From: a virus
Lineage: Duplodnaviria > Heunggongvirae > Uroviricota > Caudoviricetes
Reading direction: 5' to 3' (one strand)
Length of the DNA: 4,296 nucleotides
Virus record (IMG/VR): IMGVR_UViG_3300029229_000093
Notes under the pieces: generated by a model
Told to the model about the DNA's origin: nothing
What the model saw: the letters and a program-made list of their open reading frames with translations, nothing else
Databases searched by the model: none
Shown here: piece after piece, positions 2,161 to 4,296 of the stretch
Layout of the letters: every line of letters starts with the position of its first letter
Position numbering within the stretch: position 1 is the first letter of the stretch
Program-made: the position numbers and the translations under genes

Positions 2161-2846
2161 ATAACCAGTATTTACAGTTTGTGCGTGAGCAGCTCATTAT
2201 CGCCACCGCTGATTTGAGTGGGGCAACAAAAGGTCAGCTTGAAGCCTGGCAGGAGAATGCCATGTTCGATACAGGGCGTTACAGGCGTAAAAAAATCCGG
2301 TACCGCGATGAAGTGACCGGAAAAATGATAACGCGGGATAATCCACCAATCCCGGGAAAACAATCGCTGGCGAAGGGGACGTCAATTCCTCTGGTCAGTC
2401 AGGTTGCTTTTTCTACATCATCATGGCGGCGGGCTGTTTTGTCTCTTGAAGAACATCATAAAGCCTGGTTGTTGTGGTGTTACGGCGAGAGTATTTGTTG
2501 GGAATATCAGATCGCGATAACACAGTGGGCGTGGAATGAATTTAATACTCAATCCGGTACCAGAAAAATTGCAGGGAAAACGCAGGAACGCCTGAAAAAA
2601 TTAATCTGGCTGGCTGCACAGGATGTCAGGAGATGGGTTATAGGACATGATATCTACCAGCAACAGGAGCTTGCCCGTCTGTGTGGGATTAAGCCTGACA
2701 ACTGGAGCCACAATTATGTGAGCTACTGGCGTGAAATACTCGACATTTTTATGAACCTCGATACCGAATCTCTGATTTGCACTGTGAAAAGGAGATCTCA
2801 ACAAAAAGCGGCATTTTTGCAGCGAGATATTGCAAAAGTCAATTAG
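2157..2846 (+). CDS. Putative late-gene antitermination protein Q (lambdoid Q family, 229 aa)
   Basis: ATG at 2157 overlaps the rusA stop (ATGA, 2157-2160), with SD GGAG (2147-2150). Stop TAG 2844-2846. Position directly after rusA and directly before a promoter plus short-leader terminator is the classic lambdoid Q-pR'-tR' arrangement. The ORF track also offers an upstream GTG at 2151. Family assignment is by synteny and size, not a verified alignment. Confidence 0.6.
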   Translation: MNNQYLQFVREQLIIATADLSGATKGQLEAWQENAMFDTGRYRRKKIRYRDEVTGKMITRDNPPIPGKQSLAKGTSIPLVSQVAFSTSSWRRAVLSLEEHHKAWLLWCYGESICWEYQIAITQWAWNEFNTQSGTRKIAGKTQERLKKLIWLAAQDVRRWVIGHDIYQQQELARLCGIKPDNWSHNYVSYWREILDIFMNLDTESLICTVKRRSQQKAAFLQRDIAKVN

Positions 2847-2858
2847 ATAGCATATATT
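2830..2858 (+). promoter_or_regulatory. pR'-like late promoter (sigma70 -35/-10)
   Basis: TTGCAA (2830-2835), 17-bp spacer, TATATT (2853-2858). Overlaps the 3' end of the Q ORF. Predicted start near 2865. Confidence 0.45.
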
Positions 2859-2869
2859 TTATGTAAATG

Positions 2870-2878
2870 TGATATATT
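2870..2878 (+). promoter_or_regulatory. Second -10-like element (TGaTATATT): candidate promoter-proximal pause / Q-engagement site, or alternative extended -10 promoter
   Basis: TG (2870-2871) plus TATATT (2873-2878), 20 bp downstream of the first TATATT. Lambdoid late promoters use a -10-like repeat in the early transcribed region for sigma-dependent pausing. Confidence 0.3.
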
Positions 2879-2893
2879 GCTGTAAAGTGTATA

Positions 2894-2920
2894 AACCCGC
2901 TCAAATGTGCGGGTTTTTTG
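2894..2920 (+). terminator. Rho-independent terminator (tR'-like) ending a short late leader RNA
   Basis: Stem AACCCGC (2894-2900) pairs with GCGGGTT (2909-2915) around an 8-nt loop TCAAATGT, followed by a T6 run (2914-2919). Confidence 0.75.
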
Positions 2921-2949
2921 CTTAACTCTGTGGACCTTTTTATCTGTAG

Positions 2950-2975
2950 TTGTAATATATGGATATTGTTACAAT
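2950..2975 (+). promoter_or_regulatory. Inverted repeat TTGTAA/TTACAA overlapping a candidate extended -10 promoter (TGtTACAAT) just upstream of the kinase gene
   Basis: TTGTAA (2950-2955) and TTACAA (2969-2974) are reverse complements separated by 13 bp. TG (2967-2968) plus TACAAT (2970-2975) forms an extended -10, about 7 bp before the kinase SD. Confidence 0.3.
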
Positions 2976-2992
2976 TTAGGTCGGTGAGCTTA

Positions 2993-3757
2993 ATGGAAGA
3001 ACAGCACGGTAATTACTTTATAAAACGAATTCAGTTGATTGGAAGAGGGGCATTTGGCTTTGTTGAACACGTTAAGGTTTACAACCTCAATAAAGGTGAA
3101 TGCGGGGATTATGCTAGAAAGGTTTTAGCACCCGAAAAACCAGAGCTTTTGGCGCAAATAGAGCAGTTTAGAAGGCGTTTTAAAAGGGAGGTTGTGTATC
3201 AATCACATTGCGTACATAGCAATATTGTTCCTATTTATTTGTGCGATTTGTTTGTTGAGAATCCATGGTTCATTATGGATAAAGCAGAATGTGATCTTGA
3301 GCACGAAATAACGAACAACCTTCTTACAACAGATCAAAAAATTTCAATAGTGAAAATGGTATTAGATGGTGTAGCTTACATCCATGCCAAAGGCTATTTA
3401 CACAGAGATATAAAACCCTTTAATGTTTTGCGATTTAGCGACGGAACATACAAGGTGTCTGATTTTGGTCTGGTAAAAGATACGAATCCCGAAGGGGATA
3501 CCACTAAATTGACCGAGATCGGTACCCGTATGGGAAGTACAAGATATATGGCTCCCGAGATTTTATATAATGCAGAGTATTCAGTTAAGACTGATGTTTA
3601 TGCTGTGGGACGGTTAATTGAAGACTTAAATTTAGATGATAAAAAAATAAAGCCTATCATAGCTAAGTGCACAAGGATGGATAAAGATGATAGATATCAG
3701 ACAATAGATGATGTGGCGTTTGATTTTGCGCATTCTTTTTTAAGGAGTGAGTCATGA
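2993..3757 (+). CDS. Eukaryotic-like (Hanks-type) Ser/Thr protein kinase, catalytic domain only (254 aa)
   Basis: Start ATG at 2993 with SD GGTGAG (2983-2988). Read directly: Gly-rich loop IGRGAFGFV (3038-3064), VAIK-type lysine in YARKV (K at 3119-3121), catalytic loop HRDIKPFN (3401-), DFG (3461-3469), APE (3551-3559), subdomain IX Asp in KTDVYAVG. Stop TGA 3755-3757. The longer ORF-track start at 2918 is rejected because it overlaps the terminator. Confidence 0.85.
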   Translation: MEEQHGNYFIKRIQLIGRGAFGFVEHVKVYNLNKGECGDYARKVLAPEKPELLAQIEQFRRRFKREVVYQSHCVHSNIVPIYLCDLFVENPWFIMDKAECDLEHEITNNLLTTDQKISIVKMVLDGVAYIHAKGYLHRDIKPFNVLRFSDGTYKVSDFGLVKDTNPEGDTTKLTEIGTRMGSTRYMAPEILYNAEYSVKTDVYAVGRLIEDLNLDDKKIKPIIAKCTRMDKDDRYQTIDDVAFDFAHSFLRSES

Positions 3758-4296
3758 TTCAGCTGATAGCGACTTCATCATTCTCGTATCCAAAAGAACC
3801 AGGTAGGGTCAACGAAGATTCATTGCTTCCTCCAAAAATTGTAGGAGACGGCGTCTTATTTGCCGTAGCTGATGGTGTAGGTTCATACTCTGGTGCCAGT
3901 TATGCTTCATCCATGGCAATCGCTGAACTTTCAGCATTGACAAGTTTATCTTTTGATGCAGTTCCGAATGTATTTGCTGAAGTTAAGCGAAAAGTTATGT
4001 CGTTAGCTGAAGTTAATGATGAGTTCGATAAAGCTGCTACTACACTTACCTTTTGTTATGTTTGTGATAGCGGAATTATTATTGGTCATATTGGTGATTG
4101 TCGCTTGTATTGCATTGGAGAAAAGAAAGCATATCAATTGACGAAGGACGATACCAGACATCAGATGTTAATTGATCAGAATATTTTTAAACCCAGAGAT
4201 TTGAAGAATAAACCGGGAAAAAATATCTTAACGACTGCCATAGCCTCAAATGTTGATATGGAATACGACTGTGATTTTATCCCGTGGAAAGATTTG
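3754..4296 (+). CDS. PP2C-family (PPM) Ser/Thr protein phosphatase, 5' portion (181 codons, continues past window end)
   Basis: ATG at 3754 overlaps the kinase stop (ATGA), with SD AAGGAG (3742-3747). PP2C motifs read directly: RVNED (motif 1), FAVADGVGS (DGxGG-like, D40/G41 at 3871-3876), TTLT, IGHIGDCRLY (GDSR-like, 4093-4098), LTKDDTRH (LTxDH-like), NILTTAIAS. No stop before 4296. Confidence 0.85.
   Translation, partial: MIQLIATSSFSYPKEPGRVNEDSLLPPKIVGDGVLFAVADGVGSYSGASYASSMAIAELSALTSLSFDAVPNVFAEVKRKVMSLAEVNDEFDKAATTLTFCYVCDSGIIIGHIGDCRLYCIGEKKAYQLTKDDTRHQMLIDQNIFKPRDLKNKPGKNILTTAIASNVDMEYDCDFIPWKDL

Follow-up and report, generated by a model that had tools for sequence, protein, structure and literature searches.

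A compact Hanks-type kinase without a recognisable αG helix and its PP2C partner form a mobile cassette of an Escherichia coli lambdoid prophage

The DNA studied here (the window) is a stretch of 4,296 nucleotides from the tailed-phage record IMGVR_UViG_3300029229_000093 and is part of a lambdoid prophage of Escherichia coli; its positions 2850–4296 are 100% identical to strain MS 196-1. On the plus strand, it carries at 2993–3757 the coding sequence of a minimal Hanks-type Ser/Thr protein kinase of 254 amino acids, which is directly followed by the gene of a PP2C phosphatase (3754–4296, plus strand; the first 181 of its 247 codons, as the gene runs past the end of the window). The start codon of the phosphatase overlaps the stop codon of the kinase in the ATGA at 3754–3757. 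A Shine-Dalgarno-like GGTGAG, read from the sequence at 2983–2988 (plus strand), is spaced 4 nucleotides from the kinase ATG, and its GAG motif is repeated upstream of the start in homologous loci. Both genes are annotated in RefSeq, in which the kinase gene is likewise 765 nucleotides long. This kinase–phosphatase pair, its relatives and its possible role are the subject of the present work.

A sequence-only reading of the window had placed the kinase in this open reading frame (ORF), with its motifs where they were found here, and had described it as a bare catalytic core without sensor, membrane or dimerisation extensions. The absence of extra domains was borne out. A Pfam scan returned Pkinase (PF00069; 1.5e-33, residues 12–209, 116.7 bits against a gathering threshold of 31.7) and PK_Tyr_Ser-Thr as the sole domains, both for the 254-residue protein and for the longest ORF of 279 residues. 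No PASTA repeats or other sensor domain were found by Pfam in the protein, which stops at residue 254, and no transmembrane segment was detected in it by Kyte-Doolittle analysis (maximum 19-residue mean of 1.06). This compact build is shared by the family, as the 66 complete copies in the fetched loci measure 241–264 residues, with a median of 254.

A longer upstream start had been named in the sequence-only reading as a place where additional domains might be hidden. The nearest in-frame stop lies at 2870–2872, which limits an N-terminal extension to at most 25 residues, starting from the TTG at 2918, and the resulting 279-residue ORF gained no domain. This longer start, which would add a hydrophobic leader of 25 residues (19-residue mean of 1.51), was rejected: its TTG falls within a terminator T-tract and is not preceded by a Shine-Dalgarno sequence, and the added residues are not conserved. 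M1, on the other hand, is nearly invariant among 46 homologues, and the homologous ORFs start at the same Met.

The same reading had seen an acidic tail at the C-terminus. The last 54 residues are indeed acidic (isoelectric point of 4.8), but in the AlphaFold model they form two confident helices, at 220–226 and 238–250, with only the last 4 residues poorly modelled. In the model, this region is no appendage but belongs to the C-lobe, as αH and αI; the protein ends 20 residues past subdomain XI.

The bare kinase in fact falls short of a full catalytic core, since a segment of about 30 residues that contains helix αG is absent. The Pfam Pkinase match ends at profile position 187 of 263. In HMMER alignments with Stk1 of Staphylococcus aureus and StkP of Streptococcus pneumoniae, the kinase is aligned up to the end of helix αF and the alignment resumes 30–33 residues further on, jumping from 209 to 240 in Stk1 and from 228 to 262 in StkP, with the same outcome for the single sequence and for the family profile. 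BLASTP against the Stk kinase of phage 933W placed a gap of 31 residues at the same site. This αF–αH junction corresponds to residues 212–219 (3626–3649, plus strand), and in the structure model αF is followed by no more than two helices before the C-terminus. A complete bilobal fold including αF, αG, αH and αI was not found in this kinase. We take the missing block to be helix αG with its flanking loops, and the retained part (…IKPIIAKCTRMDKDDRYQT…) to be αH with the Arg of subdomain XI, in both cases judging by the PknB sequence. None of the 46 family sequences has an insertion at the αF–αH junction, and the loss of αG is therefore family-wide. In several kinases, substrates and partners dock on αG, which also takes part in the front-to-front dimers of PknB. 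One known surface for dimerisation and docking is physically absent from the present kinase, which points to a different mode of docking for substrates and partners in this family.

The catalytic machinery is fully conserved in the alignment of 46 sequences, with each catalytic residue falling in one of its 22 invariant columns. The Gly-rich loop GRGAFG (residues 17–22; 3041–3058, plus strand) retains G17, G19 and G22, and the catalytic loop HRDIKPFN (residues 137–144; 3401–3424, plus strand) retains H137, R138, D139, K141 and N144. K43, E66, the DFG motif (157–159) and E189 of the APE motif (187–189) are also invariant, and R234 is found in 45 of the 46 sequences; D201 is likewise in its expected place. 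The activation segment from DFG to APE (residues 157–189; 3461–3559, plus strand) contains conserved S/T170, T174 and T/S182, with position 174 being Thr in 45 sequences and position 170 Ser or Thr in 43. The structure model is confident (mean predicted local distance difference test, pLDDT, of 89.9; predicted template modelling score, pTM, of 0.86), and its pLDDT is low only at the activation loop, residues 163–178. With its catalytic residues invariant and its model confident, the ORF product is a real kinase that is probably active. In line with the Ser/Thr type that had been assigned to its catalytic loop, the HRDxKxxN motif of an RD kinase is accompanied by a G[ST]xxYxAPE motif (P+1 loop GSTRYMAPE), which by established kinase knowledge points to Ser/Thr specificity.

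The phosphatase matches PP2C_2 (PF13672) with 3.6e-12 for the part inside the window and 2.8e-14 for the full-length protein of 247 residues. Its homologues are also bare (234–259 residues) and come from the same taxa as the kinases, and 29 of them all retain the metal-binding residues D22, D40, D115, D195, D233 and D234. A PP2C gene was located directly 3′ of the kinase gene and on the same strand in 75 of 75 loci (62 from IMG/VR and 13 from genomes or phages); one of these is interrupted by the end of its contig, and two are rearranged or degraded. The 4-nucleotide overlap of the genes is present in 50 of the 75 loci and is kept across genera, while no third conserved gene accompanies the pair in the examined loci. 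Such strict pairing fits the proposal of the sequence-only reading that the partner phosphatase regulates the kinase. One IMG/VR locus (L144, 1–2700) has duplications inside both the kinase and the PP2C genes, which may reflect a rearrangement or an assembly artefact.

Approximately 300 homologues of the kinase were found; the 120 listed are 217–284 residues long, nearly all of them 241–264, and come from Gammaproteobacteria, including Raoultella, Yersinia, Hafnia, Providencia, Xenorhabdus, Pseudomonas, Vibrio, Aeromonas, Haemophilus and Xanthomonas. A further search covered 1.8 billion representatives; its top ranks are giant multi-kinase proteins with summed scores. The matches in it that cover approximately the whole profile in a single stretch are all 244–263 residues long, and at least 27 clusters at 50% identity share the same length. 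A tblastn search of a phage collection with the kinase returned 34 records only, and identities of at least 40% were restricted to Flotzy and phiES15, each with the same pair. In PHROGs, the kinase is assigned to phrog_2361 ("serine-threonine kinase") and the phosphatase to an unnamed family. The profile phrog_5650, which the PP2C protein matches at L001 12905–13645, has 565 positions, of which the protein covers 273–520; its first half is not matched by the kinase.

Other searches returned mostly generic kinases. The profile scan of genome contigs was dominated by them (patterns HRDIKPxN and YKVSDFGL), with L005 as the sole family member, and exact-protein look-ups and IMG/VR were used instead. 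Four proteins with apparent matches to the C-terminal tail (P0197, P0252, P0218 and P0153) were rejected as fused relatives, being generic multi-domain kinases, and a BFVD structure search gave only generic kinases of giant viruses and retroviruses. Two loci (L155, 921–2956; L156, 1554–3565) encode related kinases of 438–443 residues followed by a PP2C, an extended cousin of the two-gene module; these kinases consist of the core and a C-terminal extension of about 190 residues without a Pfam match.

The pair lies in a low-GC foreign block that begins at 2881 and extends 349 nucleotides past the end of the window at 4296 (plus strand; 1765 bp in total), as defined by blastn against a prophage with an empty site (L091), by the GC content of segments and by the composition profile. 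In the longer locus L001, the block boundaries from blastn against L091 are 12032 and 13796, equivalent to window positions 2881 and 4645. Its GC content is 32–39%, compared with approximately 54% in the flanking Q, RusA and methylase sequences. In L091 (4729–6013), a 65-residue ORF and an N6 methyltransferase gene are intact; the block has replaced this ORF and two-thirds of the methyltransferase gene from its 5′ end, so that a methylase remnant of 288 nucleotides is left on the 3′ side of the block. With its foreign composition and its insertion between genes that are adjacent in relatives, the pair is a horizontally acquired, moron-like two-gene cassette. Among 5426 complete E. coli genomes, 50 match positions 2850–4296 at 95–100%. 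A related Q region was found in 1365 genomes, but Q occurs together with the kinase start in 47 only. Past the PP2C stop and still in the low-GC block (L001, approximately 13718–13745), a GC-rich hairpin with a T-run (GGCTGCTATCAGGCGGCCTTTTT) was noticed by eye but not listed by the consensus scan; it looks like the cassette's own terminator.

In the slot that the cassette occupies after Q, related phages carry methylase or Shiga toxin genes. Within the window, the gene order is the DUF968/HNH protein (731–1786), RusA, antiterminator Q (2151–2846), kinase and PP2C. The Q gene (plus strand; Pfam Phage_antiter_Q 3.2e-84, annotated in RefSeq) provides context and lies outside the cassette. In full genomes, the pair is followed by the 3′ remnant of the DNA methyltransferase gene, the tRNA-Ile/Arg/Arg genes, a nanS-p-type esterase gene and the lysis genes. 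This late-region layout of Shiga toxin phages (Q, pR′, tR′, tRNA-Ile/Arg/Arg, nanS-p esterase, holin) spans 11308–17579 in L001 and 12206–18001 in 933W (L176), and in L001 the kinase cassette sits between Q and the tRNA genes. The present prophage shares with 933W the backbone of Q, pR′, terminators, ileZ/argN/argO, stx2AB, esterase and S, but is without stx. Elsewhere in the window, the C-terminal part of the DUF968 protein also matches the HNH-nuclease model HNHc_6 (3.3e-07), and two small ORFs 5′ of its gene (133–384 and 451–729; 83 and 92 residues) have no Pfam match. A run of 11 N at 1818–1828 breaks the 5′ end of rusA, and the frame from the ATG at 1787 is untraceable across it.

Other members of the family occupy varied positions, among which certain insertion sites recur. 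In a survey of about 31 non-redundant viral contigs, the upstream neighbour was an endolysin in 7, an Rz-like spanin in 4, Q in 3, and a CI-like or other repressor in about 6, while the downstream neighbour was the small terminase in about 9–11, a holin in 3, an integrase in 2 and an antirepressor in 2. In at least four non-redundant contigs (L111, L112, L121 and L126, at approximately 3800–6500), a divergent cro/YdaS-like gene, a CI-type repressor gene, the kinase and the PP2C follow each other, with 80–130 nucleotides between repressor and kinase genes, which have the same orientation. The stk gene of 933W has the same immunity-operon position behind cI, which is also the position of λ rexAB. 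Further copies were located in a Mu-like head region, in the early region of a Haemophilus prophage, in a Pseudomonas putida island with transposases, beside a NACHT protein in Xanthomonas, in a small chromosomal islet of Aeromonas and, in one case, near HicAB. Overall, the hosts of the pair are lambdoid, Mu-like and other prophages as well as genomic islands.

Upstream of the cassette, a promoter scan identified a pR′-like late promoter (TTGCAA-17-TATATT; 2830–2858, plus strand) that overlaps the end of Q and is followed by a −10-like GATAT near 2870. The empty-site prophage conserves both elements, phiES15 has them in recognisable form, and their layout matches the annotated pR′/qut of 933W, suggesting pR′ function. 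An intrinsic terminator follows at 2893–2922 (plus strand), formed by a hairpin at 2893–2916 with an 8-bp stem containing 5 GC pairs, stable in an RNA fold, and a TTTTTT tract. This hairpin is in the tR′ position yet lies within the foreign block; at the corresponding place, another hairpin is found in the empty-site phage and in phiES15. As the pair stands behind pR′ and this terminator, downstream of Q, and no separate promoter was detected for it, its transcription here would plausibly be mainly Q-dependent, late after induction, or arise from terminator read-through. The suggestion of the sequence-only reading that regulation comes from expression timing is therefore plausible for this prophage, but the copies in cI operons and between lysis and terminase genes mean that late timing is not a property of the family. 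Just 5′ of the kinase ribosome-binding site, an AU-rich hairpin is present at 2948–2976 (a TTGTAA...TTACAA inverted repeat); the kinase leader as a whole has a fold z of −2.2 relative to shuffled sequences.

On balance, we lean towards the view that the kinase and its translationally coupled bare PP2C act as a switch gated by phosphorylation of the activation loop, likely serving as a toxin/antitoxin-like exclusion module or a host-modifying module. The molecular part of this view, namely the kinase, the PP2C and their pairing, is well supported, and from it we infer the biological role. As an RD kinase, the enzyme would activate itself by phosphorylation of its activation loop at Thr174 and Ser/Thr170, while the co-made PP2C would strip phosphates from the kinase and its substrates and so keep the system switched off or hold it at a set point. 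Once the balance tips, the kinase would phosphorylate host or phage proteins in trans. Such tipping may result from a shift in relative expression or from an incoming phage protein that blocks the phosphatase or activates the kinase. A prophage would most likely gain from this by excluding competing phages or making their infection abortive, or by controlling the physiology of its host, in a toxin/antitoxin-like manner. In this prophage, the main expression would be late and Q-dependent, with only read-through in the lysogen.

The best-documented model for such behaviour is the prophage kinase-kinase-phosphatase module KKP (PfpC-PfkB-PfkA) described by Guo et al. 2024 (PMC11341870), in which two kinases are jointly toxic, the PP2C neutralises them, and inhibition of the phosphatase by T4 Gp59 leads to defence. 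The sequence-only reading had preferred expression timing and the phosphatase over ligand sensing as the source of regulation; because the KKP trigger, a phage protein, binds the phosphatase (PMC11341870), a bare pair could still sense.

Several observations weigh against a switch of this kind. KKP toxicity depends on a second kinase and on accessory domains, CSD and FHA (PMC11341870), all of which are absent here, and the analogy may fail for this reason. A cassette behind a terminator in a late operon is not an obvious layout for a gene that is to be on in lysogens. Between the terminator and the kinase start, the promoter scan gave no σ70-like site with a score of 9/12 or more. Among 36 family loci, promoter-like sites were present upstream in 11 (31%), which is no enrichment over the 28% in shuffled sequence. 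The PADLOC matches to mad6 (6e-40), PD-T4-6 (1e-34) and Stk2 (1e-27) were rejected as a defence assignment, since they cover the kinase core only and have generic scores. In addition, the searched literature yielded no experimental work on the present family.

The expression layout raises the possibility that the pair is a lytic-cycle helper, made late from pR′ under Q, with the kinase modifying host proteins for the phage's own late development and the phosphatase limiting the damage or resetting the targets. The gp0.7 kinase of T7, an unrelated host-takeover kinase, offers a parallel. In the present prophage, as in phiES15 and a Yersinia prophage, the pair comes directly after Q, pR′ and a terminator; in about 7–11 other phages it separates the lysis genes from terS, also in late-operon territory; and a separate promoter went undetected. 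We nevertheless consider this role rather unlikely, as the pair lies behind cI, in a lysogenic operon, in at least four non-redundant phages and also occurs in non-phage islands. Moreover, the Q–holin and Rz–terS intervals are recurrent sites of accessory insertions that are not all lytic (methylase, tRNA, stx), and the pair is dispensable for this type of phage, being carried by 50 of 5426 E. coli genomes compared with 1365 that have a related Q region lacking it. The cI-linked copies would agree with a regulator of lysogeny or induction, in which the target of the kinase is a nucleoid or repressor protein of the host and the phosphatase reverses its phosphorylation to tune prophage silencing, much as KKP tunes the production and induction of the Pf prophage through phosphorylation of MvaU (PMC11341870). 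Since the sequence gives no pointer to a specific target, family members also occur outside prophages, and the kinase has none of the nucleic-acid- or phosphopeptide-binding domains that the KKP kinases need, such a regulator seems improbable to us.

It could also be argued that a kinase truncated by the loss of αG is an inactive, decaying remnant that is carried passively. Its C-lobe is shorter than in solved kinases, the neighbouring methylase gene is truncated, and a few family loci (L144 and L149) are rearranged or degraded. However, the deletion is shared by the family and is old, with the same length maintained across the clusters at 50% identity; the invariant positions include all catalytic residues of the kinase, and those of its partner are invariant too; the model is confident, and the gene overlap persists across genera. 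Conservation thus strongly disfavours the remnant explanation, to which we give very little credence.

Within the preferred reading of the pair as a phosphorylation-gated switch, a bolder form can be formulated, which we put forward only tentatively. The αG-less kinase and the bare PP2C would by themselves constitute a complete phosphorylation-based toxin/antitoxin or abortive-infection system, a two-gene "KP" module without the accessory domains and the second kinase of KKP, widespread in gammaproteobacterial temperate phages and represented in E. coli by a copy in the late slot of Shiga toxin. The catalytic domains would then do the sensing, through a phage protein that blocks the phosphatase or docks on the trimmed C-lobe.

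Control of lysogeny and phage defence by prophage kinase/phosphatase modules has been shown only recently, and the present family would be their smallest version. Consisting of two catalytic domains only, it would offer a clean system for studying how an immune or takeover switch built on a kinase detects its trigger when it has no sensor domain. The absence of αG throughout the family is of use to kinase structural biology, and for E. coli genomics the pair is a further cargo of the Q-to-lysis hot spot that holds Shiga toxin in related phages. If the kinase is merely a generic accessory enzyme, our annotation would be correct but ordinary.

In comparison with known systems, the present pair resembles PknB/PstP, Stk1/Stp1 and PpkA/PppA in combining an RD kinase that has an activation-loop Thr with a PP2C in the same operon, and the C-terminal "RYQT" motif of the kinase matches PknB. 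In contrast, the PknB, Stk1 and PpkA kinases possess a transmembrane segment, PASTA, vWA or other sensor domains and αG, none of which is found here, and their pairs belong to the core genome, where they regulate growth, division or type VI secretion, whereas the present pair is a mobile cassette. The Stk of 933W is likewise a eukaryote-like kinase encoded by an accessory gene of a lambdoid prophage, and is said to exclude phage HK97, a finding attributed to Friedman et al. in 2011. However, it shares only 24% identity with the present kinase, is 348 residues long, has HFD instead of HRD and no adjacent phosphatase, and contains a complete Pkinase domain (profile positions 9–253 of 263) including αG as well as a C-terminal extension.

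PD-T4-6, a single-gene Ser/Thr-kinase defence system of E. coli (Vassallo et al. 2022, PMC9519451), is similar in being a Hanks-type kinase of the E. coli accessory genome, and the PADLOC PD-T4-6 models match the core of the present kinase. As defined, it is one gene of 1311 nucleotides encoding 436 residues, with a full kinase domain and about 150 further residues, and has no phosphatase partner. Membership was rejected, since the match covers positions 11–201 of 327 with 117.7 bits, the generic level of Pkinase. The staphylococcal defence kinase Stk2 was rejected likewise, with a match to profile positions 160–348 of 500 only (94.7 bits).

Within the coverage of the searched library, a literature search for characterised two-gene kinase–PP2C phage modules found only KKP. 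The present pair and KKP both combine prophage Hanks-type kinases with a PP2C_2-type phosphatase in one operon and are found in temperate phages or mobile elements of Gram-negative bacteria, and in both the opposing activities make a toxin/antitoxin pair plausible. Of the features that describe KKP, the present pair has the PP2C_2 phosphatase in the same operon and the prophage location. KKP, however, comprises three genes in the order phosphatase-kinase-kinase, whereas the present module has two in the order kinase-phosphatase in 75 of 75 loci, with no adjacent second kinase. The KKP kinases are approximately 300–430 residues long and carry a C-terminal CSD (PfkA) or FHA domain (PfkB), while the present kinase of 254 residues has neither and also lacks αG. 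In addition, KKP is chiefly found in P2, P4, Mu and Pf prophages, and the present copy is lambdoid. With its different gene number, gene order and domains, the pair does not belong to KKP, but by analogy it may work like KKP. Taken together, the kinase–PP2C pair can be regarded as a simpler version of a known kind of prophage system, with a plausible proposed biology.

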